From positions 19,654,001-19,718,000 of the forward strand of contig OZ024759.1 in the NCBI GenBank assembly GCA_964016885.1: DNA of 64,000 nt. The letters are read 5' to 3'. The DNA comes from Eledone cirrhosa. Its lineage: Eukaryota. Below the pieces are notes generated by a model that was given only the letters and a program-made list of their open reading frames with translations, was not told the DNA's origin and did not search any database. Position numbers and translations under genes: made by a program. Each line of letters opens with the position of its first letter. Positions within the stretch are counted from its first letter, which is position 1. Below, in pieces: positions 1,201 through 53,965 of the stretch.

Positions 1201-2471
1201 TGTAACTATCTACCTATCTATCTATCTTTGGATGTCTATATATGTGATTATATATCTATCTGCCTGTCTATCTATGTATTTATCGTACTCCTGGAGATGA
1301 GGGTTGCACATTTTTTCGACTAATTTTTAAATTGCATTTGTGATAATATTTTACACGTTTTTATTGTATGTAAACTTCCTCCTCTGTATTTGTCCCCTTC
1401 TTTTGTGCCCCTGTGGCTAATAAAGAAACGTATCTATGTATTTATCTGTCTGTCTGTCTGGAGAGAGGGGTGCTGTACCCCAGCAAGTTTTATGTGTTTG
1501 GCATGTGGATGTGTCTATGTCACCACCCATTACTGGGTAGATACTCTATTTCTGCATCGACCAAGAATGGGTCTAATGCCTGTCTCTGCTCTCCTTTGAT
1601 ATATTTCTTGTGTCATAATTTTTTTTTTTTTCTGTCATCATTCCCTAGGTTGTGGGGTTGTTGCTATTCCATTTCTGATTTTCATTCAGGGTTGGTTTAC
1701 TTTCTGTAATTTGTCTAAAGTCTATCTCAAGCTAGAATGCTTGTTAGGCCGGTGCTTATCCTGGTTTCAAGGCATGAATCGACTGAAGGTACAATATTTT
1801 CCCCCTGGACAGGATGCCAGTCCATTGCAGGGTTAAACCCTCAGCTATTGCTGGTACTCATTTTCAGCTGAGTATACTGAAGCAACATGAAAATGAAGTG
1901 TTTTGTTCAAGAACACAACACACAACCCAGCCTAGGAATCGAACCTACAATATTATGTGTATAAGTTCTATACCCACTCCCATAAGTATAATAAGTACCA
2001 GTCACAACCAATGGGTCCAATTTAGTTGACAATACCCCCGTCCGTTTCCATTAGCATGTGTCTTGTTTTGGAAGTCTTTACTAGTAGTTTCTTTTTACTG
2101 TACTGTGGCCATGCTGGGGCACGGCCTTGTAGAGTATTGCTGATTATTTAAAAACCGGGCAAGATTTGAACTTGTAAAGTTCAATGCTTTTCCAACTCTG
2201 CCACCTATCTGCACTGGGATAATTGCTGGCCTTGTGCCAAAAGTAGAAACAATTATGATTATTTTTTTATATATATATATTTTATTTTTATATTTTTTCA
2301 TTGTTAAATTGGTTTTGTTATTGTGTATTTTCACTCAATCTTATTGTAAACTCCCCATTGTCCCTGTCTTTGTATTGTCCCCTATATGTCGGCCCCTGTG
2401 GCCAATAAATGAAATCTTTATTATCATTATGTAATATGTAATCTTAATGTCTTCTTCTTTTGTTCTTGCAG

Positions 2472-5400
2472 TATTGCCACTGTGACTAATTCTTCGACGA
2501 AAACTTCTGTTGCCAAAGACAGTTTCACTCCAGCCTCCGAATTCTTTTCTGAACCGATATTTTCGCCCCCCGGTGTTAAGACTCGACTGCGTCGACAGTC
2601 TATGTACGTGAAGAAACCTACCGCAAATGTCACATTTTCAATTACAAAGCAGGACGTGAGTTTTACCCAGTCGAACACATCGTCTTCTTCGAGGCTGACC
2701 AAAATCTCAAGCCGTCAAAAGACTACTGTTAAACAGGCTATGACAACGACAGAGAGCCCCGTGCTGGTCGTCAACGATGGCCAGCCAATGGAAGGGGAGT
2801 TGGGAGAAGCGGCGGAATCGACGGTCAGTGAAGAAATCAGCAACGTCATTGACAATCTTCGCGATTCGAACCGCAAGCGCAAGACAGTAGAAGGTTCTGA
2901 AACAAAGGACAGCACAGTAGTTGTGAAATCTTTGAAGACTCTGGAGGAAGAGAAGCTGTCTTTGGTTAGGAGTTTGTCGTTGAGGGAGAAGTCGAGGGAC
3001 GTGGTGATTGAAGTGGATGCTTCTGCTTCCGAGAAGACGGAAGCTGTGGAAGCTTCGGCTGAGGTACAAGATGGTGATGTCAACCACAATAATGACGGCG
3101 ACAAAGAAGGAGATGTTGTTGTTGTTGTTGTTGATGATGATGATGATGATGATGATGATGCAGAGGAAGAGGTGGAGGAGGATGAAGGTGGAGATGCTGA
3201 GGAATCGTCTGTCGAGGTTAAAAAAAGCAAAAGAACGACAACGAAAAAGACGAAGAAGGTTGCTGCAAGGAGTAAAAGCAGATCTCCTGCTCCTGGGACA
3301 AGGAGGTCAACACGAAGGAGTGCTTCGAGGGCCAAAGTTGAACAGGTTGAGGCAACCGAAGAAGCAGAGGCAACCGAAGAAGCAGAGGCAACTGAAGAGG
3401 CAGAGATAACTGGAGGGGCAGAGGAAACTGAAGAAGAAGAGGCAACTGAAGAGGAAGAGGCAACTGAAGAGGAAGAGGCAACTGAAGAGGAAATAGCAAC
3501 CGAAGAGGTAGAGGCAACTAAAGAGAAGGCCAGAAGTAGCAGCAAAAAGATAAAATCAAGCAGCAGGCGAAGTAAGAAGAGGCATACCCCTTCTAGAAGA
3601 CAGGCAAGTGTGTCAAGCAAGGAATCTGTTGAGGAGACTACTACTATTCCAGTGAAGAAAGAGCGGAGATCACGATCATTGGGGCCTAAGAGTAAAGGAA
3701 AGACCCATGAAAAGGTGGTGGTAGAAGACAAACGGGCTGAAAGTACGCCCCAAAAAGAAAAATCCAAGAAGCGCGGCCGTTCCCAAAAGGCTACTTCTCA
3801 AAGCAAAGAGTCTCAACAATCGCCTGCTGTCCAGAAGCGTTCCCATAAAAAGTCCACTACGAGAAAATCAACTCCTTCGAGAAAGAGTACTCCTGCAAGG
3901 GAGGGCACTCCCGTGAAAAAGAGCACCCCTTCAAAGAAGGCCGCGCCTAGAGAAACAACTCCTGCAAGAAAGAGCTCCTCTACAAAAAAGGCTGCTATCA
4001 GAGAAACCACCCCTTCAAGAAAAGCTGCCCCTAAAGAAACAACCCCTTCCAGAAAGGCTGCCCCTAAAGAAACAGCTGTTGCGAAAAAGACTGTTTCTAA
4101 AGAAACAATTTCCGTCAGGGAAAGTACTCCTGCCAGAAAGGCTGCTGCAAAGGAGAGTACTCCTGCAAAGAAGGCCACTCCCTCTAGAGAGGCAACTCCT
4201 ACTAAAAAGAGTACTTCTACTAGAAAGTCGACTCCTGCTCGAGAAGCACGTGCAAAAAAGTCCGTGTCTAGAAAGAGTACTCCTGTTAGAAAGGCCACAC
4301 CTTCCAGAAAAGCTACGCCTTCCAGAGATTCTACTCCAGCTAGAAAAACCACACCTTCTAGAAAAACCACACCTTCAAGAGAAACCACACCTTCTAGAAA
4401 AACCACACCTTCAAGAGAAACCACACCTTCTAGAAAAACCACACCTTCAAGAGAAACCACACCTTCTAGAAAAACCACACCTTCAAGAGAAACCATCGAG
4501 AAAAGGGACTCATCTGTTAAGCGTGCAACACCTTCCAAGAAAAAGTCTCCATCGAAATCTATCAAGAAAAAGACGCTACGGAAATCTTCGCGGTCTCGGA
4601 GCAAATCGAAGAAAGTTAGCAAGCGCTCTTCTCCAAAGAAGAATGTCAGGAAGAAAGCATCGTCGACAGAAAAAGATTCCTTGGACACTCCTGATGCTCC
4701 TGATGCTGTCCCAGTGGAATCGGAAGCAGCTCCAGAAACCCTGGATACTCCTGCACCAACCACAGCAGTAAAGAGTAGCTCTTCAGTATCTACATTACTT
4801 ACAGGTCTCTTTAAGCATTTCGTCCCCAGCCAGAAAAAGGCGAAACTAGTTGAATCTAACACGACCACCACTACCATTACTACCACTACCGCTACTGCAT
4901 CTAGTGTTGACCCCACTACTACTACTGAGTCAGAAGACTCGGGGGAAGAGCTGAGAAGAAAGATACCAGCGGCTAAGCAACGGCATGCCCTAATTTCTTC
5001 GCCATTGCTTTCCAGCACACCAGATGCTCCCCTGATTCCGAAAACGTCTTTCGTCAGTAGACTTAAGGAGACAGCCTCAAGTCTGTCTCCGTTTGCTTTG
5101 AGCAAATCGTTCGAGTACAAGCGCTCCGTTGTTGCATCGGCGTGCAACCAGACTTTGGAGATTTCGCAGTCGATCGTACACCCAGAAACAGTTGAAGAAC
5201 GGTCCACGTCGGCGGTGACCAGCTTGATTGAGGAGCAGACAACAGTTGGCCTGAACCAGGCCCAACAGAACATTGATATAACCTCAGATGATGATAGGGA
5301 GAGATCTACCGCCCACAGGGCAGCTGAGGAGGACGAGCAGAAACATGAGGAAATAGTTCTCAACAAGAAAGAGGTACATTACGAGTCGCAGGAGTCGGAA

Positions 5401-6609
5401 ATGGATGAGGAGTCGATCGTTGATAATGAGTCTCAGCAGTCCAAGATGGATAAGGATGCCCACTATGAATCACAGGAATCTGAGATTGGTGCGGTTGTCC
5501 ACTATGAATCACAGGAGTCCGAGATTGATGAAGTGGAGAGTCCAGGCATTGAGAAAAGCGTTCACTATGAGTCGCAGGTTGAGACAGAGGAGGATGATTC
5601 CCAGGCCGAGGCAGAGGAAAGTTCCCAGGTAGAAACCGAAGGGGAAGACTCCCAGGCTGAGTCAGCGGAAGTCTCCCAGGTTGAAACCGAAGAGGAAGAC
5701 TCCCAGGCTGAGGCAGCGGAAGTCTCCCAGGTCGAAACCGAAGAGGAAGACTCCCAGGCTGAGGCAGAGGAGATTTCCCAAGTCGAAAGCAAAGAGGGAG
5801 ACTCCCAGGCTGAAACCGAGGAGGAAGACTCCCAGGCTGAAATGGCTGATATTTCCCAGGTGGAAACGGAGGACGAGCCATCCCATATTTATGCGGAGGG
5901 TAAAGAGGGTCTGGAAGTGGTGACGGTGACCAAGACGAGCAATGGAACCACGGAACTCTCCACAATCACCATGGATACAGCAGAGGCCGTCTCATCAACC
6001 ACCAGCAGAAACGTGACCGTCCACTACGAGTCTCAGGAATCCGAATTGGATGATGAGGAGGAGGAGGAGGAGGATGAGGAGGAGGAAGTGAAGGCAGTGG
6101 AAGATGCCACTGAAATGGTTGCCAGCAAGGGGGATGATGCTGAGGCGGAGGAGAAGGAGGAAGCAGATCATGATCATCAAGATAAGCGCGCCACCATTTG
6201 TGATTATTTCAGAAAGGAGATCATTGAAATCAATGACAAGGAAAACGATGACATCGTCCAGTCAAAGACCAAAGGGCAAAAGGAGTTGGAGCAGGAGGAG
6301 GAGGATGAAGAGGAAGAGGAAGAGGAGGAAGAAGAGGAAGATGTAATAGCGAAGATCAAAGCAGTGGCAGGCGTAAAGACGACCATGAAAACGACAACAA
6401 AGAGGACAATATTCAGCAGTATGGCTAGTTCAGTGGATGCTGAGAAACTGGACACGGCGGGCTTGTTTGACCACTCGGACGAGCCACCGCTGAAGAAGAC
6501 ACACACTGAGATGATAGACGAACAAATAGAAGAAGCAGACGAAGAAGATGTGAAAGCTACTTATGACTCCTACTATTCAGGTTATGGACTACGATGTACC
6601 ATCTTGTAA
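2472..6609 (+). CDS. Large (probably terminal) exon of an intrinsically disordered protein: acidic E/D tracts, K/R-rich TPxR/K repeats, SQ-rich repeats, C-terminal CaaX-like CTIL
   Basis: 4.1-kb stop-free frame with higher GC than its flanks. Strong acceptor TCTTCTTCTTTTGTTCTTGCAG ends at 2471, so the GTG at 2482 is not a true start. Stop TAA at 6607-6609. No upstream exon identified in the window. Confidence 0.85.
3850..4640 (+). repeat. Coding 18/36-bp tandem repeats encoding (S/T/A)TP(S/A)R(K/E)
   Basis: ACCACACCTTCTAGAAAA/ACCACACCTTCAAGAGAA alternation at 4348-4497 with degenerate copies upstream. Confidence 0.85.
5374..5870 (+). repeat. Coding acidic repeats (HYESQESE; 51-bp unit encoding [17 protein letters not shown])
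   Basis: Visible in translation and in DNA (TCCCAGG repeats). Confidence 0.8.
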
Positions 6610-18994: not shown

Positions 18995-19555
18995 CAGAAA
19001 TAACAACACAATCGGTACAGTATGTGGAAGGAATATATTAGGTTAACGCTTGAAATAGCAGGAAGAGGGTCTTAACGTTTCGGACGCTACTACTTCATCA
19101 GAAGAAAGAATGAGAAATAAAACACATTGAAGGGACGGGCGGGTTGGAATTTGAAAAAATGTCTTTAGATAAAAATAAGAGGTCCATTCATGTTCACATC
19201 TCTTGGAAATGCGTGTGTGTGTATAAAGCAGTATGTTATTTGAAGGTTACGACAATGCAAAATATATATATATCCATTATCTAAACGTCACTGAAGATGG
19301 ATAATGATCCTGAAATACTAGTAGTTGGTGTTTCCATGCGGTCACTGGGGCAGCTGTGACACGATCGCCGCCTAAAATTCCCAAACAGCAAATTGCCGTC
19401 AACTGTCAAGGGAGAGAATTACTAAACAGTTTAAGGGACATAAATAATAATTCGCCGGAGTTCCTTCCCTTGAAAATTTTAATGTGTAGTCAGAGATAAA
19501 GAGAGTCCCAAACGTTTGTGACATAAGTTCAAAATTTCAGATATGTATGTCTGTG

Positions 19556-19622
<67 letters not shown>

Positions 19623-19716
19623 TTAAAGGTTAAACAAGGTTCAATGAATAAATCAAAGAATTAGTTTTACAATAGATTGGAAGCACTCAACAGTTAAGGT
19701 TTTCAGGAGTTATTAT

Positions 19717-20061
19717 TATTAATTCAAAATATTAACAAAAATAGAACTTCTTGTGATCAAGTATATTTTATTATACATATTTCAGAGGTACTGAGCTAAC
19801 TTCAACAGTACGTCCTCATCAGATAAAATAAGATGATGCATGACATACCCTGACATAGTAGATGGTTAAGATCCAGTCATGGTAAGATCCAGTCATGTCT
19901 ACCATGACTGGATCTTAACCATCTACTATGTCAGGGTATGTCATGCATCATCTTATTTTATCTGATGAGGACGTACTGTTGAAGTTAGCTCAGTACCTCT
20001 GAAATATGTATAATAAAATATACTTGATCACAAGAAGTTCTATTTTTGTTAATATTTTGAA

Positions 20062-20067
<6 letters not shown>
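19717..20067. mobile_element. Perfect 168-bp inverted repeat carrying two divergent hammerhead motifs (Penelope-like inverted insertion)
   Basis: Arms 19717-19884 and 19900-20067 with a 15-nt spacer; motifs at 19764-19830 (-) and 19954-20020 (+). Confidence 0.75.
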
Positions 20068-20096
<29 letters not shown>

Positions 20097-22019: not shown

Positions 22020-22402
22020 ATCAACATCACCGTTTTACGTCCATTTTTCCACGCTAGCATGGGTTAGACGAGTTGCCCTGTTGTGGGCAGTGTCCAGTCA
22101 GCTGACCGTGTCTTGCTCATACGGGAACTGATTCTGGCTTGATTTCTACAGCTGGATGCCCTTCCTAACACCAACCTCATTTACAGTGAGTGGTGGGTGC
22201 TTTTTTGCCGTGGCACATCCACGACCACTTTGCATTGGAATGATAGGGACCCCAGTCCCTACCATCTCATTTCTACAGCTGAGTAAACTGGAACAATGTG
22301 AAATAAAGTGTCTTGCTCAAGGAAACAACACATCACCCGGTCTGAGAATTGATCTCAGAACCTTTCGGTTGCAAGCCCAATGCTCTAACCACTAAGCCAT
22401 GT
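22020..22402 (-). mobile_element. CORE-like tRNA SINE with RTE-type tail
   Basis: Reverse complement of ATGGCTTAGTGGTTAGAGC head, CORE-like domain and GAT-type tail. Confidence 0.85.
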
Positions 22403-27292: not shown

Positions 27293-27694
27293 CATCATCA
27301 TCATCATCATCATCACCGTTTTACGTCCGTTCTTCCATGCTAGCATAGGTTAGATGGGTTGTCCTGTTGTGGGCAGTGTCCAGTCGGCTGACCTTGTCTT
27401 GCTCATACGGAAACTGATTCTGGCTTGATTTCTACAGCTGGATGCCCTTCCTAACACCGACCTCATTTACAGTGAGTGCTGGGTGCTTTTTTGCCGTGGC
27501 ACCTCCACAACCACTTTGCAGTGGAATGATAGGGACCCCAGGCCCTATTATCTCATTTCTGCAGCTGAGTAAACTGGAACAATGTGAAAATAAAGTGTCT
27601 TACTCAAGGAAACAACACATCACCCGGTCTGAGAATTGAACTCAAAACCTTTCGATTGCAAGCCCAATGCTCTAACCACTAAGCCATGTGCCTT
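27290..27694 (-). mobile_element. CORE-like tRNA SINE with RTE-type tail
   Basis: Same family as 22020. Confidence 0.85.
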
Positions 27695-28309: not shown

Positions 28310-29230
28310 GAGTGAACTGAAGCAACACATTGCCTAATGCAAGAATCAAGCTCACAGCCTCACAATTGTGAACCAAACTATTTAACCACTAAGCCACGAA
28401 GCTTCACATATTTATGGAGCAATGTGTAATAAAGTGACTTGCTGAAGGAGACAAAATGAAGCTCACAGCCTCACGATTGTGAACTCAACTCTCTAACCAC
28501 TAAGCTGCATGACTTCACATATTTATGAAGCAAAGTGAAATAAAGTTTCTTGCTGAAGGAGACAACACATTGCTCAATCCAAAATGAAGCTCACAGCCTC
28601 ATGATTGTGAACCAAACTCTTTAACCACTAAGCCACGAAGCTTCACATATTTATGGAGCAATGTGTAATAAAGTGACTTGCTGAAGGAGACAAAATGAAG
28701 CTCACAGCCTCACGATTGTGAACTCAACTCTCTAACCACTAAGCTGCATGACTTCACATATTTATGGAGCAAAGTGAAATAAAGTTTCTTGCTGAAGGAG
28801 ACAACACATTGCTCAATCCAAAATGAAGCTCACAGCCTCATGATTGTGAACCAAACTCTTTAACCACTAAGCCATGAAGCTTCACATATTTATGGAGCAA
28901 TGTGTAATAAAGTGACTTGCTGAAGGAGACAAAATGAAGCTCACAGCCTCACGATTGTGAACTCAACTCTCTAACCACTAAGCTGCATGACTTCACATAT
29001 TTATGGAGCAAAGTGAAATAAAGTTTCTTGCTGAAGGAGACAACACATTGCTCAATCCAAAATGAAGCTCACAGCCTCATGATTGTGAACCAAACTCTTT
29101 AACCACTAAGCCACGAAGCTTCACATATTTATGGAGCAATGGGAAATAAAGAGTCTTGCTGAAGGAGACACAACACATTGCCCGATCGAAGATTCACACT
29201 CACATCCTCACAATTGTGAACTCAACACTC
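28310..29230 (-). repeat. SINE-head-derived satellite, 239-bp higher-order repeat (111+128 bp)
   Basis: AACCACTAAG at 28384, 28495, 28623, 28734, 28862, 28973 and 29101. Confidence 0.85.
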
Positions 29231-29382
29231 TACCCTATGGGTGTCCGACATATTCCAGTGGTGGGCTACTTTTGAACATTGGAACAACTATTAGGGCTAT
29301 TCATATTTATTAAGCACTATTCCAAAGATTCACCACAACTTCTTTCCATAATATGGAACTGGGAAATTATAACACACATAAC

Positions 29383-29722
29383 GGAGGCACATGGCTTAGT
29401 GGTTAGAGCATTGGCCTTGCAATCGAAAGGTTGTGAGTTCAATTCTCAGACCGGGTGATGTGTTGTTTCCTTGAGCAAGACACTTTATTTCACATTGCTC
29501 CAGTTTACTCAGCTGTAGAAATGAGATGATAGGAACTGGGGTCCCTATCATTCCACTGCAAAGTGATTGTGGAGGTGCCACGGCAAAAAGGCACCCAGCA
29601 CTCACTGTAAATTGAGGTTGGTGTTAGGAAGGGCATCCAGCTGTAGAAATCAAGCCAGAATCAGTTCCCGTCTCACCCTTGCAAGCAGGGAAAAGTGGAC
29701 GTAAAATGATGATGATGATGAT
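29383..29722 (+). mobile_element. CORE-like tRNA SINE with RTE-type tail
   Basis: A-box TGGCTTAGTGG, B-box GAGTTCAATTCT, CORE-like domain, (GAT)n. Confidence 0.85.
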
Positions 29723-29896
29723 AAGCCTATCAGTGAATCCCTTCAGTATAGGTCAACTAACAGAAAATTTTATTACGGATTCGAAAAAAATTCTAAATAA
29801 GCCTACAAAGTAAAAGTTAAAAACAGTCATCACAGGCCGCTCTGACTGGTCTGGCGGGCAGATTGTGGCCTGAGGGCCACCTGTTGCACACCCCTG

Positions 29897-30520
29897 TTCT
29901 AACCACTAAGCCACGAAGCTTCACATATTTATGGAGTATTGTGAAATAAAGTTTCTTGCTGAAGGAGACAAAATGAAGCTCACAGCCTCACGATTGCTAA
30001 CCCAACTCTTTAACCACTAAGCCACGAAGCTTCACATATTTATGGAGTATTGTGAAATAAAGTTTCTTGCTGAAGGAGACAAAATGAAGCTCACAGCCTC
30101 ACGATTGCTAACCCAACTCTTTAACCACTAAGCCACGAAGCTTCACATATTTATGGAGTATTGTGAAATAAAGTTTCTTGCTGAAGGAGACAAAATGAAG
30201 CTCACAGCCTCACGATTGCTAACCCAACTCTTTAACCACTAAGCCACGAAGCTTCACATATTTATGGAACATTGTGAAATAAAGTTTCTTGCTGAAGGAG
30301 ACAACACATTGCCTGATCCTAGACACAAGCTCACAGCCTCACGATTGCTAACCCAACTCTTTAACCACTAAGCCACGAAGCTTCACATATTTATGGAGTC
30401 TTGTGAAATAAAGTTTCTTGCTGAAGGAAAAAACACATTGCCCGATCCTAGAATCAAGCTCACAGCCTCACGATTGCTAACCCAACTCTTTAACCCTAAG
30501 CCACGAAGCTTCACATAATT
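29897..30520 (-). repeat. SINE-head-derived satellite, 111/128-bp units
   Basis: AACCACTAAGCCACGAAGCTTCACATATTTATGGA at 111-bp spacing, then longer units. Confidence 0.85.
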
Positions 30521-30638
30521 ATTTATGTATGTTGATATAATTATTGTTGTATTTTAGTTTCCATATGACTAATTTCTTGCTTGTTTTTATTTTGCCTTTC
30601 TATTTTCCTATCATCTTGCAGTTCTGCCAGTTGACAAC

Positions 30639-30938: not shown

Positions 30939-31378
30939 GTTTTGTTCATTGTATATGTTGTGTAGTAAAGATTGTAAATGCAGACAAAAAGTAAATGGAA
31001 ACAAAGCAATCAATACAGTACAATGAAGAAATATATTAGTTTAATGCTTGTAAGGAGTATTAACGTTTCGGACACTAGTCCTTCATCAGAAATAACAAAG
31101 CAAACAGCACAGTAAATTGAAGAAATATATTAATTTAATGCTTGATATAGGAGGAAAAGAGTTTTAACATTTCGGACACCAGTTCTTCATCAGAAAATAG
31201 ATTGAGAACAAAAAGGGACATATTAGATATGCCATCTTAGATAAAAATGAGATGGATATGGCTGGAAGGTTATTGATCATAGGTCTGTTCCACTAGGGTT
31301 GACCGTGGGTTAAATAATAACAACAACAACAACAAAAAAATTAAAAGATTTTACATTTATCTACAAAATGGCTGAAAG

Positions 31379-38930: not shown

Positions 38931-39431
38931 TATATTGTGTGTGTGTGTGTGTGTGTATGTATAATACCTAATGTCAAAACAGTCAACCATATTCAAATTA
39001 TTTTAAACTATTTCATTGAATTCCTAAAAAGCATCAAATAACAGATTCCTCTGATATTTTTTATCTTATTTTTTAATTGTCTAATAAATTACTTCAATAA
39101 TTAAATTTTTTAATCTCGATAAAAATTTGTAAAAAACAAAATATATATAAATTGAAACAAAATGAAAACGAAATTTCATTTCTCACTCTTAGTATGGCAC
39201 TTACTTAAATCTAAGTATGCATGTATACGTACATACATATATGTATACAGACGTACAGTAGCATGCACATATATATATATATATACATATATACATACAT
39301 ATGCATACAGGTACACATACATATATGCACGTATCAGTTTAGCGGCGCTAACGTCGCTTTGTTCGTTTGTAAACAAACTGAACAGCCTGAATTTATGCCA
39401 TACGGTGTTAAGGCAACCACGTCACCTTTTT

Positions 39432-41382
39432 GTTCAACACTGACACAGGAACGATGTACTAGTTTCAAGCTTGTTAGCTATCATCAGCACCGTTTACCCA
39501 TCTGCCAGATAGTTGAACGTTCGAAAGTATATACTTTCCTTATGAAAATTAACGGCTGAGCAGCCTAATTTGCATATTGAGTGAGTTAAATCGGTCAGGC
39601 ATACCGAAAACGATAAATTGAAACAAAATGAAAACGAAATTTCATTTCTCACTCTTAGTATGGCACTTACTTAAATCTAAGTATGCATGTATACGTACAT
39701 ACATATATGTATACAGACGTACAGTAGCATGCACATATATATATATATATACATATATACATACATATGCATACAGGTACACATACATATATGCACGTAT
39801 CAGTTTAGCGGCGCTAACGTCGCTTTGTTCGTTTGTAAACAAACTGAACAGCCTGAATTTATGCCATACGGTGTTAAGGCAACCACGTCACCTTTTTGTT
39901 CAACACTGACACAGGAACGATGTACTAGTTTCAAGCTTGTTAGCTATCATCAGCACCGTTTACCCATCTGCCAGATAGTTGAACGTTCGAAAGTATATAC
40001 TTTCCTTATGAAAATTAACGGCTGAGCAGCCTAATTTGCATATTGAGTGAGTTAAATCGGTCAGGCATACCGAAAACGATAAATTGAAACAAAATGAAAA
40101 CGAAATTTCATTTCTCACTCTTAGTATGGCACTTACTTAAATCTAAGTATGCATGTATACGTACATACATATATGTATACAGACGTACAGTAGCATGCAC
40201 ATATATATATATATATACATATATACATACATATGCATACAGGTACACATACATATATGCACGTATCAGTTTAGCGGCGCTAACGTCGCTTTGTTCGTTT
40301 GTAAACAAACTGAACAGCCTGAATTTATGCCATACGGTGTTAAGGCAACCACGTCACCTTTTTGTTCAACACTGACACAGGAACGATGTACTAGTTTCAA
40401 GCTTGTTAGCTATCATCAGCACCGTTTACCCATCTGCCAGATAGTTGAACGTTCGAAAGTATATACTTTCCTTATGAAAATTAACGGCTGAGCAGCCTAA
40501 TTTGCATATTGAGTGAGTTAAATCGGTCAGGCATACCGAAAACGATAAATTGAAACAAAATGAAAACGAAATTTCATTTCTCACTCTTAGTATGGCACTT
40601 ACTTAAATCTAAGTATGCATGTATACGTACATACATATATGTATACAGACGTACAGTAGCATGCACATATATATATATATATACATATATACATACATAT
40701 GCATACAGGTACACATACATATATGCACGTATCAGTTTAGCGGCGCTAACGTCGCTTTGTTCGTTTGTAAACAAACTGAACAGCCTGAATTTATGCCATA
40801 CGGTGTTAAGGCAACCACGTCACCTTTTTGTTCAACACTGACACAGGAACGATGTACTAGTTTCAAGCTTGTTAGCTATCATCAGCACCGTTTACCCATC
40901 TGCCAGATAGTTGAACGTTCGAAAGTATATACTTTCCTTATGAAAATTAACGGCTGAGCAGCCTAATTTGCATATTGAGTGAGTTAAATCGGTCAGGCAT
41001 ACCGAAAACGATAAATTGAAACAAAATGAAAACGAAATTTCATTTCTCACTCTTAGTATGGCACTTACTTAAATCTAAGTATGCATGTATACGTACATAC
41101 ATATATGTATACAGACGTACAGTAGCATGCACATATATATATATATATACATATATACATACATATGCATACAGGTACACATACATATATGCACGTATCA
41201 GTTTAGCGGCGCTAACGTCGCTTTGTTCGTTTGTAAACAAACTGAACAGCCTGAATTTATGCCATACGGTGTTAAGGCAACCACGTCACCTTTTTGTTCA
41301 ACACTGACACAGGAACGATGTACTAGTTTCAAGCTTGTTAGCTATCATCAGCACCGTTTACCCATCTGCCAGATAGTTGAAC
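39432..41382 (-). ncRNA. Five type I hammerhead ribozymes, left arm (first at 39432-39518, then every 466 bp)
   Basis: TCATCAG at 39481, 39947, 40413, 40879 and 41345; exact reverse complement of the right-arm motif. Confidence 0.8.
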
Positions 41383-42029
41383 GTTCGAAAGTATATACTT
41401 TCCTTATGAAAATTAACGGCTGAGCAGCCTAATTTGCATATTGAGTGAGTTAAATCGGTCAGGCATACCGAAAACGATAAATTGAAACAAAATGAAAACG
41501 AAATTTCATTTCTCACTCTTAGTATGGCACTTACTTAAATCTAAGTATGCATGTATACGTACATACATATATGTATACAGACGTACAGTAGCATGCACAT
41601 ATATATATATATATACATATATACATACATATGCATACAGGTACACATACATATATGCACGTATCAGTTTAGCGGCGCTAACGTCGCTTTGTTCGTTTGT
41701 AAACAAACTGAACAGCCTGAATTTATGCCATACGGTGTTAAGGCAACCACGTCACCTTTTTGTATGTGTACCTGTATGCATATGTATGTATATATGTATA
41801 TATATATATATATGTGCATGCTACTGTACGTCTGTATACATATATGTATGTACGTATACATGCATACTTAGATTTAAGTAAGTGCCATACTAAGAGTGAG
41901 AAATGAAATTTCGTTTTCATTTTGTTTCAATTTATCGTTTTCGGTATGCCTGACCGATTTAACTCACTCAATATGCAAATTAGGCTGCTCAGCCGTTAAT
42001 TTTCATAAGGAAAGTATATACTTTCGAAC

Positions 42030-45000
42030 GTTCAACTATCTGGCAGATGGGTAAACGGTGCTGATGATAGCTAACAAGCTTGAAACTAGTACATCGTTCC
42101 TGTGTCAGTGTTGAACAAAAAGGTGACGTGGTTGCCTTAACACCGTATGGCATAAATTCAGGCTGTTCAGTTTGTTTACAAACGAACAAAGCGACGTTAG
42201 CGCCGCTAAACTGATACGTGCATATATGTATGTGTACCTGTATGCATATGTATGTATATATGTATATATATATATATATGTGCATGCTACTGTACGTCTG
42301 TATACATATATGTATGTACGTATACATGCATACTTAGATTTAAGTAAGTGCCATACTAAGAGTGAGAAATGAAATTTCGTTTTCATTTTGTTTCAATTTA
42401 TCGTTTTCGGTATGCCTGACCGATTTAACTCACTCAATATGCAAATTAGGCTGCTCAGCCGTTAATTTTCATAAGGAAAGTATATACTTTCGAACGTTCA
42501 ACTATCTGGCAGATGGGTAAACGGTGCTGATGATAGCTAACAAGCTTGAAACTAGTACATCGTTCCTGTGTCAGTGTTGAACAAAAAGGTGACGTGGTTG
42601 CCTTAACACCGTATGGCATAAATTCAGGCTGTTCAGTTTGTTTACAAACGAACAAAGCGACGTTAGCGCCGCTAAACTGATACGTGCATATATGTATGTG
42701 TACCTGTATGCATATGTATGTATATATGTATATATATATATATATGTGCATGCTACTGTACGTCTGTATACATATATGTATGTACGTATACATGCATACT
42801 TAGATTTAAGTAAGTGCCATACTAAGAGTGAGAAATGAAATTTCGTTTTCATTTTGTTTCAATTTATCGTTTTCGGTATGCCTGACCGATTTAACTCACT
42901 CAATATGCAAATTAGGCTGCTCAGCCGTTAATTTTCATAAGGAAAGTATATACTTTCGAACGTTCAACTATCTGGCAGATGGGTAAACGGTGCTGATGAT
43001 AGCTAACAAGCTTGAAACTAGTACATCGTTCCTGTGTCAGTGTTGAACAAAAAGGTGACGTGGTTGCCTTAACACCGTATGGCATAAATTCAGGCTGTTC
43101 AGTTTGTTTACAAACGAACAAAGCGACGTTAGCGCCGCTAAACTGATACGTGCATATATGTATGTGTACCTGTATGCATATGTATGTATATATGTATATA
43201 TATATATATATGTGCATGCTACTGTACGTCTGTATACATATATGTATGTACGTATACATGCATACTTAGATTTAAGTAAGTGCCATACTAAGAGTGAGAA
43301 ATGAAATTTCGTTTTCATTTTGTTTCAATTTATCGTTTTCGGTATGCCTGACCGATTTAACTCACTCAATATGCAAATTAGGCTGCTCAGCCGTTAATTT
43401 TCATAAGGAAAGTATATACTTTCGAACGTTCAACTATCTGGCAGATGGGTAAACGGTGCTGATGATAGCTAACAAGCTTGAAACTAGTACATCGTTCCTG
43501 TGTCAGTGTTGAACAAAAAGGTGACGTGGTTGCCTTAACACCGTATGGCATAAATTCAGGCTGTTCAGTTTGTTTACAAACGAACAAAGCGACGTTAGCG
43601 CCGCTAAACTGATACGTGCATATATGTATGTGTACCTGTATGCATATGTATGTATATATGTATATATATATATATATGTGCATGCTACTGTACGTCTGTA
43701 TACATATATGTATGTACGTATACATGCATACTTAGATTTAAGTAAGTGCCATACTAAGAGTGAGAAATGAAATTTCGTTTTCATTTTGTTTCAATTTATC
43801 GTTTTCGGTATGCCTGACCGATTTAACTCACTCAATATGCAAATTAGGCTGCTCAGCCGTTAATTTTCATAAGGAAAGTATATACTTTCGAACGTTCAAC
43901 TATCTGGCAGATGGGTAAACGGTGCTGATGATAGCTAACAAGCTTGAAACTAGTACATCGTTCCTGTGTCAGTGTTGAACAAAAAGGTGACGTGGTTGCC
44001 TTAACACCGTATGGCATAAATTCAGGCTGTTCAGTTTGTTTACAAACGAACAAAGCGACGTTAGCGCCGCTAAACTGATACGTGCATATATGTATGTGTA
44101 CCTGTATGCATATGTATGTATATATGTATATATATATATATATGTGCATGCTACTGTACGTCTGTATACATATATGTATGTACGTATACATGCATACTTA
44201 GATTTAAGTAAGTGCCATACTAAGAGTGAGAAATGAAATTTCGTTTTCATTTTGTTTCAATTTATCGTTTTCGGTATGCCTGACCGATTTAACTCACTCA
44301 ATATGCAAATTAGGCTGCTCAGCCGTTAATTTTCATAAGGAAAGTATATACTTTCGAACGTTCAACTATCTGGCAGATGGGTAAACGGTGCTGATGATAG
44401 CTAACAAGCTTGAAACTAGTACATCGTTCCTGTGTCAGTGTTGAACAAAAAGGTGACGTGGTTGCCTTAACACCGTATGGCATAAATTCAGGCTGTTCAG
44501 TTTGTTTACAAACGAACAAAGCGACGTTAGCGCCGCTAAACTGATACGTGCATATATGTATGTGTACCTGTATGCATATGTATGTATATATGTATATATA
44601 TATATATATGTGCATGCTACTGTACGTCTGTATACATATATGTATGTACGTATACATGCATACTTAGATTTAAGTAAGTGCCATACTAAGAGTGAGAAAT
44701 GAAATTTCGTTTTCATTTTGTTTCAATTTATCGTTTTCGGTATGCCTGACCGATTTAACTCACTCAATATGCAAATTAGGCTGCTCAGCCGTTAATTTTC
44801 ATAAGGAAAGTATATACTTTCGAACGTTCAACTATCTGGCAGATGGGTAAACGGTGCTGATGATAGCTAACAAGCTTGAAACTAGTACATCGTTCCTGTG
44901 TCAGTGTTGAACAAAAAGGTGACGTGGTTGCCTTAACACCGTATGGCATAAATTCAGGCTGTTCAGTTTGTTTACAAACGAACAAAGCGACGTTAGCGCC

Positions 45001-46776
45001 GCTAAACTGATACGTGCATATATGTATGTGTACCTGTATGCATATGTATGTATATATGTATATATATATATATATGTGCATGCTACTGTACGTCTGTATA
45101 CATATATGTATGTACGTATACATGCATACTTAGATTTAAGTAAGTGCCATACTAAGAGTGAGAAATGAAATTTCGTTTTCATTTTGTTTCAATTTATCGT
45201 TTTCGGTATGCCTGACCGATTTAACTCACTCAATATGCAAATTAGGCTGCTCAGCCGTTAATTTTCATAAGGAAAGTATATACTTTCGAACGTTCAACTA
45301 TCTGGCAGATGGGTAAACGGTGCTGATGATAGCTAACAAGCTTGAAACTAGTACATCGTTCCTGTGTCAGTGTTGAACAAAAAGGTGACGTGGTTGCCTT
45401 AACACCGTATGGCATAAATTCAGGCTGTTCAGTTTGTTTACAAACGAACAAAGCGACGTTAGCGCCGCTAAACTGATACGTGCATATATGTATGTGTACC
45501 TGTATGCATATGTATGTATATATGTATATATATATATATATGTGCATGCTACTGTACGTCTGTATACATATATGTATGTACGTATACATGCATACTTAGA
45601 TTTAAGTAAGTGCCATACTAAGAGTGAGAAATGAAATTTCGTTTTCATTTTGTTTCAATTTATCGTTTTCGGTATGCCTGACCGATTTAACTCACTCAAT
45701 ATGCAAATTAGGCTGCTCAGCCGTTAATTTTCATAAGGAAAGTATATACTTTCGAACGTTCAACTATCTGGCAGATGGGTAAACGGTGCTGATGATAGCT
45801 AACAAGCTTGAAACTAGTACATCGTTCCTGTGTCAGTGTTGAACAAAAAGGTGACGTGGTTGCCTTAACACCGTATGGCATAAATTCAGGCTGTTCAGTT
45901 TGTTTACAAACGAACAAAGCGACGTTAGCGCCGCTAAACTGATACGTGCATATATGTATGTGTACCTGTATGCATATGTATGTATATATGTATATATATA
46001 TATATATGTGCATGCTACTGTACGTCTGTATACATATATGTATGTACGTATACATGCATACTTAGATTTAAGTAAGTGCCATACTAAGAGTGAGAAATGA
46101 AATTTCGTTTTCATTTTGTTTCAATTTATCGTTTTCGGTATGCCTGACCGATTTAACTCACTCAATATGCAAATTAGGCTGCTCAGCCGTTAATTTTCAT
46201 AAGGAAAGTATATACTTTCGAACGTTCAACTATCTGGCAGATGGGTAAACGGTGCTGATGATAGCTAACAAGCTTGAAACTAGTACATCGTTCCTGTGTC
46301 AGTGTTGAACAAAAAGGTGACGTGGTTGCCTTAACACCGTATGGCATAAATTCAGGCTGTTCAGTTTGTTTACAAACGAACAAAGCGACGTTAGCGCCGC
46401 TAAACTGATACGTGCATATATGTATGTGTACCTGTATGCATATGTATGTATATATGTATATATATATATATATGTGCATGCTACTGTACGTCTGTATACA
46501 TATATGTATGTACGTATACATGCATACTTAGATTTAAGTAAGTGCCATACTAAGAGTGAGAAATGAAATTTCGTTTTCATTTTGTTTCAATTTATCGTTT
46601 TCGGTATGCCTGACCGATTTAACTCACTCAATATGCAAATTAGGCTGCTCAGCCGTTAATTTTCATAAGGAAAGTATATACTTTCGAACGTTCAACTATC
46701 TGGCAGATGGGTAAACGGTGCTGATGATAGCTAACAAGCTTGAAACTAGTACATCGTTCCTGTGTCAGTGTTGAAC
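42030..46776 (+). ncRNA. Eleven type I hammerhead ribozymes, right arm (first at 42030-42116, then every 466 bp)
   Basis: AACGGUG-CUGAUGA-UAGCU-AACA-AGCUU-GAAA-CUAG-UA^CAUCGUU. Stem I is 7 bp, extended by CUGGCA/UGUCAG and GUUCAAC/GUUGAAC. CTGATGA at 42061+466n up to 46721. Confidence 0.8.
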
Positions 46777-47069
46777 AAAAAGGTGACGTGGTTGCCTTAA
46801 CACCGTATGGCATAAATTCAGGCTGTTCAGTTTGTTTACAAACGAACAAAGCGACGTTAGCGCCGCTAAACTGATACGTGCATATATGTATGTGTACCTG
46901 TATGCATATGTATGTATATATGTATATATATATATATATGTGCATGCTACTGTACGTCTGTATACATATATGTATGTACGTATACATGCATACTTAAAAT
47001 ATATATATATTGTTAGTTACCAATGGAATGGTGAACTAATCTTACCTTGTTGTTATTGATATCAGTGTG

Positions 47070-53269: not shown

Positions 53270-53965
53270 TACATCTGCTTTTCCACTCTTGCATGGGCTG
53301 GATGGGTCTTTTGTAACACAGCACCTCTCTATTTATTGTGGTCCTTTGTCATCTTCTTTGTGACCTTCAACAATTAGAGATTGGTCCTTATAACTTCTAT
53401 CTAGGCTCCTTGGTCTGCCTCTACTGCAGCTTCCTTCCACAAGGATTTCTTGGCACTTTATCATCATCATCATCATCATCATCATCATTTTACGTCCACT
53501 TTTCCCTGCTTGCAAGGGTGGGACAGGAACTGATTCTGGCTTGATTTCTACAGCTGGATGCCCTTCCTAACACCAACCTCATTTATAGTGAGTGGTGGGT
53601 GCTTTTTTTGCCATGGCACCTCCACGTCCACTTTACAGTGTGGGCTGGGTGCTTTTTTGCTGTGGCACCTCCACGTCCACTTTGCAGTGGTTTGATAGGC
53701 ACCCCAGTTCCTATCATCTCATTTCTACAGCTGAGTAAACTTTAGCAATGTGAAATAAAGTGTCTTGCTCAAAGAAACAACACATCACCCGGTCTGAGAA
53801 TTGAACTCACAACCTTTCGATTGCAAGCCCAATGCTCTAACCACTAAGCCATGTGCCTCTTCACTGGAGAGAAATGAAGCAAGTATGCTCCGTTGGATGT
53901 GCAATGTCAGTGTGCGTAAACGACCAAGCATAGACGAGTTGAGAGAGAAACTGCGTATAAGAGGA
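53270..53965. mobile_element. RTE fragments flanking a minus-strand CORE-like SINE (53460-53858)
   Basis: KCQEILVEGSCSRGRPR on the minus strand; [13 protein letters not shown]-like sequence on the plus strand; SINE head rc TAACCACTAAGCCATGTGCC. Confidence 0.75.

Follow-up and report, generated by a model that had tools for sequence, protein, structure and literature searches.

We analysed a 64,000-nt stretch of the Eledone cirrhosa genome (hereafter the window; contig OZ024759.1 of assembly GCA_964016885.1, forward strand, positions 19,654,001 to 19,718,000) that contains, from 39147 to 46996, an array of a 466-bp unit with a GC content of ~0.36 and a type I hammerhead ribozyme in all 16 of its complete units. 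The original prediction for this DNA had described 16 hammerheads in one perfect 466-bp tandem array. The 16 exact cores and the period of 466 stand, but they are divided between two perfect 466-bp blocks that are inverted relative to each other and set head-to-head, 5' end to 5' end. The left arm (39147–41763, minus strand) holds 5.6 identical units with 5 hammerheads (cores from 41351 to 39487), and the right arm (41761–46996, plus strand) holds 11.2 identical units with 11 hammerheads; the arms overlap by 3 nt at their junction (41761–41763). Identity among units is 100%, inner (TA)n tract included. With the unit numbered from its predicted cut site, such that 42092 is position 1, the right arm spans unit position 136 to 245, where it stops at end A, and the left arm spans 24 to 310, stopping at end B. 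Array mapping and end classification delimit an outermost segment of the left arm (39147–39211, minus strand; compare PMC8557442 and PMC11167929).

The first plus-strand hammerhead occupies 42030–42116, with its core at 42061–42091, its stem III palindrome at 42085–42090 and a predicted cut after 42091. One predicted 466-nt monomer, from cut site to cut site, covers 42092–42557 on the plus strand. Within it, folding delineates an AU-rich, self-complementary, microsatellite-like hairpin (42211–42331, plus strand, unit ~120–240), followed by a small hairpin (42332–42350, plus strand) with end site A in its loop. Position 42337, unit position 246, is G in the window array and C in the family norm. 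No open reading frame (ORF) of at least 120 amino acids lies inside the window units, a single one spans the arm junction, and neither the unit nor the array contains an ORF combining a reverse transcriptase (RT) with a GIY-YIG domain. A low-complexity, AT-rich 12-nt word, AAAATATATATA, borders both array ends (left copy 39138–39149, its last 3 nt common with the element; right copy 46996–47007, its first nt common with the element). It is a possible target-site duplication, graded as suggestive only because the flanks of other insertions are pure (AT)n.

The array belongs to an abundant family. A genome-wide count of the 40-nt ribozyme core, a check that the original prediction had called for, returned 10,122 exact copies in the 3.0-Gb genome against 0 for a reversed-pattern control, and family copies reach down to ~77% identity. 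An independent run, X2, contained the family with the same variants in 5,184 contigs; X23 contained none of it, and X1 (a 35-nt piece) and X16 (one 148-nt piece) were not used. The window array is one young insertion of a large dispersed mobile family and not a lone satellite. Viewing it as a local satellite had missed the arm inversion, the fixed ends described below and the genome-wide family; a plain head-to-tail local satellite with arbitrary ends does not fit the inverted arms or the ends that are fixed across the family. Matches ending at unit position 50–52 were considered as an element end and rejected as a search-window effect, since they also occur inside the window array. An older array of ~49 units at C1:70055700-70077100 (L040-L042) shows ~80% identity to the window unit; spacings of 2,652 and 3,964 bp recur in it.

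Anatomy, family conservation and copy number bear out the proposed class, that of animal non-long-terminal-repeat (non-LTR) retrozymes whose type I hammerhead has a palindromic stem III. The unit is a few hundred base pairs long with GC below ~45%, encodes no protein and has no LTR, and the family is dispersed and multicopy, in forms from dimers to large multimers. The unit had been thought long for animal retrozymes, but its length is ordinary by the published ranges, 150–450 bp (PMC7229834) and 51–972 bp (10.64898/2026.07.22.740005), both taken, like all literature comparisons here, from the accessible portions of the cited papers. The literature covered, mostly non-subscription and in part, described neither this family nor PLE-type (Penelope-like element) ends on arrays of retrozymes, nor periodic arrays that carry edits; we searched literature alone, and the family may already be catalogued in repeat databases. 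The 466-bp family is a new member of a known retrozyme class, and the new part is its insertion footprint.

Each unit carries both core boxes, stem II (AGCU/AGCU), a lengthened stem I and the GUA triplet (last nt 42091 in the first plus-strand copy), all as originally predicted. A 2-bp stem III had also been drawn; this would close a 2-nt loop, which cannot form. The monomer instead has one A-U pair and a CUAG loop, and it takes two ribozymes to form the full 6-bp ACUAGU helix (−4.8 kcal/mol for the duplex). Stem I is extended, but not as the proposed 7-bp helix: its outermost pair is U-U in 30 of 48 loci, leaving a family stem of 6 bp. With its single-pair stem III and palindromic loop, a weak stem II and a U-U mismatch at the base of stem II, the window hammerhead is of the weak-helix form. 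In many type I motifs, a weak helix III blocks cleavage of the monomer but not of the dimer (PMC7761336). An Rfam search, suggested as a check, produced no hammerhead match at the gathering score; the best was Hammerhead_HH9, whose 18.5 bits (E 0.1) fell short of the 52-bit cut-off. Sub-threshold matches to microRNA families, located on the AT hairpin, were discarded.

We compared the ribozyme across the family, where covariation had also been proposed as a check. The set comprised 185 of 192 extracted motifs from 48 loci, 7 having been dropped for gaps, divergence or truncation. Positions U4, A6, G8, A9, G12-A15.1 and U16.1 were invariant, and C3 and G5 each varied in 2 of the 48 loci. Because a CUGA-type motif and the GAAA..GUH side served as anchors for extraction, this invariance is partly built in; variation at N7 and in stem I is not. 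The free position N7 was C in 20 of 48 loci, and one stem I pair appeared as G-U (34 loci), A-U (10 loci) or, with both sides changed, U-G (6 loci). Subfamilies up to ~20% apart share changes at N7, in loops and at positions where pairing is kept. As family variation falls on just these positions, we judge on sequence grounds that the hammerhead match, despite its sub-threshold Rfam score, is not a chance one. Folding of the unit, likewise recommended, gave −152.7 kcal/mol for the predicted 466-nt circle (z −7.9 against 40 shuffles), a stability that comes mostly from the AU-rich hairpin. Adopting the ribozyme fold costs 2.1 kcal/mol in the circular family-norm monomer.

The ends of family insertions are fixed. 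We classified 106 clusters from fetched family loci, taken from the tops of match lists; 98 remained after setting aside 8 that reached the edge of their locus. Of these, 64 were two-armed, tail-to-tail pairs being split by construction. One arm ended at site A (unit ~245–251) and the other at site B (unit ~310) in 49 two-armed clusters, both ended at A in 2 and both at B in none, and 13 had one end elsewhere or unassigned. The 34 one-armed clusters ended at B (15), at A (13) or elsewhere (6). Nearly all A and B ends ran into an AT tract (135/143). Among the first 100 core matches listed, 14 minus-then-plus pairs lay within 1.5 kb, compared with 0 plus-then-minus pairs. Some insertions have one arm consisting only of the 60-nt piece between A and B, and in the family-norm unit site A sits in a hairpin loop. 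In sum, the insertions present an inverted 5'-truncated copy adjoining the 5' end, a tail at one end and an AT-rich or microsatellite target. Inverted 5'-truncated copies and one-sided tails are hallmarks of PLEs (PMC8557442). A PLE protein assayed in vitro cleaves AT-rich DNA on both strands and extends both; it starts at two internal RNA sites, located in a stem-loop and delimiting the tail, with no requirement for an RNA 3' end (PMC11167929). The fixed ends and inverted arms of the family match the 'tail' and the inverted copy of PLEs.

Variation among units provides information on the template. G246 is present at all 17 scorable positions of the window array, in both arms. Elsewhere, the 47-mer with G246 occurs twice, as single units, compared with 5,763 copies of the C246 47-mer, and the assembly contains no G246 donor array. 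Two of three further haplotypes were confined to their own array (3/4 and 6/7 copies). Across 24 arrays of at least three units (177 units), we counted 33 singleton substitutions, and 17 arrays had no substitution common to a subset of units. Such a preponderance of singletons is expected if units are written at once.

Locus L150, picked for its alternating spacing, offers the clearest order. Its 11 units alternate strictly between two types, X and Y, over 5.5 rounds, and both arms end in Y. Units two apart differ at 0 positions in 7 of 9 pairs, and neighbours differ at 17–20. Read on the ribozyme strand against their nearest sister units, X carries 15 A>G and 1 G>A and Y carries 5 A>G and 1 G>A, most of the A>G changes lying in the AU-rich hairpin. 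The edited X motif occurs 6 times in L150 and once in an unrelated older fragment. Recurrence of the same marks in every second unit points to passes round an edited dimer rather than to independent editing of a linear RNA. A weaker and noisier period of three with A>G marks was seen at L161, which was observed without the far end of its array, and one unit at L166 carries 23 A>G relative to the window unit, some of them subfamily variants. As possible donors, L135 for L098 (directly) and L159 for L150 were both rejected. L154 and L166 also carry A>G inside the ribozyme at position 460 (A15.1), where a block of cleavage is expected; at L154 these changes mark the second unit from each outer end.

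Taking these observations together, we are confident that the window array arose by recent insertion, through a PLE, of a retrozyme that is non-coding and non-autonomous. That its template was circular, closed or nicked, we consider probable. We also lean, by a slighter degree of confidence, towards a fuller account in which the family directly records rolling-circle reverse transcription in an animal, a PLE having made up to ~16 turns on a ribozyme-made circle (monomer, dimer or trimer) and fixed the adenosine-to-inosine (A-to-I) edits of that one molecule in each turn. Judging by the anatomy and by published retrozymes, arrays would be transcribed, the RNA would be cut by paired hammerheads, and the resulting 466-nt monomers and short oligomers would close into circles. 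Some of the RNAs may be A-to-I edited in the long hairpin, as the A>G clusters in genomic copies suggest. A PLE protein would then cut both strands of an (AT)n target, and each of the two DNA ends would prime cDNA at its own fixed site within one and the same RNA, the two sites lying ~60–65 nt apart. With no end to stop at, each reverse transcriptase would circle the template, 5.6 times for one arm and 11.2 for the other, and the two cDNAs would join at their far ends to yield a head-to-head insertion of identical units.

Several observations weigh against this account. In its favour, ORFs combining RT and GIY-YIG exist in the E. cirrhosa genome, but a search of 30 GIY-YIG loci and 19 longer stretches, taken from the 150 that were scored out of 10,596 GIY-YIG candidates, turned up no PLE whose ends match. 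The loci behind the end classification were not a random sample. One of the four haplotypes tested is not private and marks a sub-lineage of 390 copies. Seven of the 24 arrays have substitutions common to subsets of units, and L114/115, L136 and L155 are not cleanly periodic, implying an additional part for linear multimers, template switching or duplication at a later stage. L163-L168 were chosen for A>G; there is no family-wide A>G bias, and outside L150 the common changes comprise 8 A>G and 10 T>C. The isolated ribozyme, with its weak stems II and III, prefers an alternative fold (−28.9 versus −21.3 kcal/mol), and one of nine Xenopus retrozymes cleaved in vitro (10.64898/2026.07.22.740005). 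Finally, the genomic data would fit equally a closed circle or a cut monomer whose ends are held by stem I, with the enzyme jumping between them.

Among alternatives, we regard as unlikely a PLE-type insertion copied from the uncut linear multimer of a homogeneous donor array missing from the assembly, the ribozyme perhaps being too weak for frequent cutting. For the PLE studied in vitro, RNA that had not been cut was the principal template (PMC11167929), which counts against a circle. Units are mixed at L114/115, where one series of three recurs close to the end of either arm, and L098 and L135 have a common haplotype for which no donor is obvious. An array may adjoin an assembly gap, as L136 does by ending at one, so a donor array could be missing. 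Opposing this explanation, the G246 donor that it calls for is not in the assembly, and the same 15 changes would not recur at every second unit of an edited linear RNA.

Growth in place is also improbable as the source of the array. A short PLE-type insertion of one or two units per arm would have lengthened later by unequal crossover or tandem duplication, the former being a satellite route discussed in 10.64898/2026.07.22.740005. A private change at L136 is found only in the 6 outermost of 8 units, C1 and C3 carry long older arrays of 25–49 pieces, and in-register duplication could also repeat an edited dimer, a further point against rolling-circle copying. Yet the two inverted arms must then have grown separately, one to 5.6 and the other to 11.2 units, and the (TA)n tract must not have slipped; substitutions are mainly singletons and not blocks; and each insertion tends to hold one period across both arms.

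It is very doubtful that assembly produced the perfection or the unit number of the window array. Perfect repeats are hard to assemble, but other arrays in the same assembly keep their unit-level differences, both window array ends sit on the natural end sites of the family, and the independent run X2 has the family with the same variants. Least credible is a ribozyme surviving as a non-cutting relic of a PLE terminal repeat, the family spreading through its two retained priming sites only: the weak stems, low Rfam score and competing fold would suit such a relic, but the changes seen across subfamilies up to ~20% apart at N7, in loops and at pair-keeping positions do not.

The search for a mobilising partner turned up other PLE families, some with hammerheads and (AT)n ends, but none of those examined has ends or other sequence in common with the retrozyme unit. 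Several PLE families with long RT ORFs, most of them with GIY-YIG, lie at L117 (4306–7122, minus strand), L116 (1275–4565, plus strand), L119, L122 and L126. Those at L117 and L119 end in (AT)n, and the L119 family has a hammerhead in its 3' repeat. Named relatives of a PLE protein from the genome come from bivalves or from records labelled as bivalve-associated symbionts, at ~50% identity.

Elsewhere in the window, a second, unrelated element of the same design (19700–20090) has two head-to-head arms, the right one ending in (AT)n, with a hammerhead-like motif in each arm (19822, minus; 19962, plus). A third family is represented on the minus strand at 19101, 27088, 31089 and 31193 by minimal hammerhead-like motifs whose stem III is the palindrome AACGUU; those at 31089 and 31193 are in tandem, 104 nt apart. 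Three minus-strand tRNA-like heads over the Rfam cut-off (22342–22399, 27629–27686 and 53794–53851) are probably copies of a short interspersed nuclear element (SINE). An open frame of 1,398 codons (2413–6609, plus strand), rich in Glu/Ser/Lys/Thr repeats, is probably a large exon, and 28323–30522 contains 111-, 128- and 239-bp tandem repeats with higher-order structure.

For the spread of animal retrozymes, copying of circles by PLEs has been proposed (PMC7229834, PMC7761336), and local satellite-like growth has been discussed (10.64898/2026.07.22.740005). The thousands of young insertions in this family, through their ends, unit order and edit marks, can discriminate between spreading routes by computation alone. 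For in vitro testing, the family further supplies a target and the exact RNA positions at which copying would start. If the rolling-circle account is true, the mobiliser of animal retrozymes is identified by its footprint, circular RNA is a real retrotransposition template, and RNA editing feeds heritable variation into a family whose copies number over 10,000. Builders of RNA-templated insertion tools would also be interested in a natural enzyme able to insert multimers copied from a small non-coding circle.

Hammerhead repeats with a weak palindromic stem III are found in newt satellite 2 and schistosome Sm-alpha, to which the window array was likened by description and not by sequence. Newt hammerhead repeats are also mentioned in PMC7229834, whose non-LTR retrozymes of coral, mussel and axolotl are likewise non-coding tandem units with one type I hammerhead each, low GC and thousands of copies; their sequence differs from that of the E. 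cirrhosa family. The axolotl HHR_Amex1, with a one-pair stem III and palindromic tetraloop, resembles the E. cirrhosa ribozyme, and HHR_Amex2 has the same U-U at the base of stem II. In its accessible portions, that paper describes no fixed internal ends, head-to-head arms, (AT)n targeting or edited periodic arrays, and the copying of circles by a PLE enzyme stands there and in PMC7761336 as a hypothesis or model for retrozymes. Vertebrate non-LTR retrozymes (10.64898/2026.07.22.740005), whose 51–972 bp encompass our 466 bp, co-occur with PLEs and are proposed to depend on them. The evidence there is co-occurrence and terminal-repeat homology, whereas in E. cirrhosa it is an insertion footprint; no PLE repeat homologous to the E. 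cirrhosa unit was found in the 30 loci and 19 longer stretches. The closest likeness of the footprint is to endonuclease-bearing (EN+) PLEs (PMC8557442; anole Poseidon, PMC11167929), which likewise have a 5'-truncated copy in inverted orientation, a one-sided tail and AT-rich or microsatellite targets, and, as in the E. cirrhosa unit, two internal start sites downstream of the hammerhead (PMC11167929). Unlike these PLEs, the E. cirrhosa family has a unit without an ORF, arms of up to ~16 whole units and a tail of ~60–65 nt, compared with 30–40 nt.

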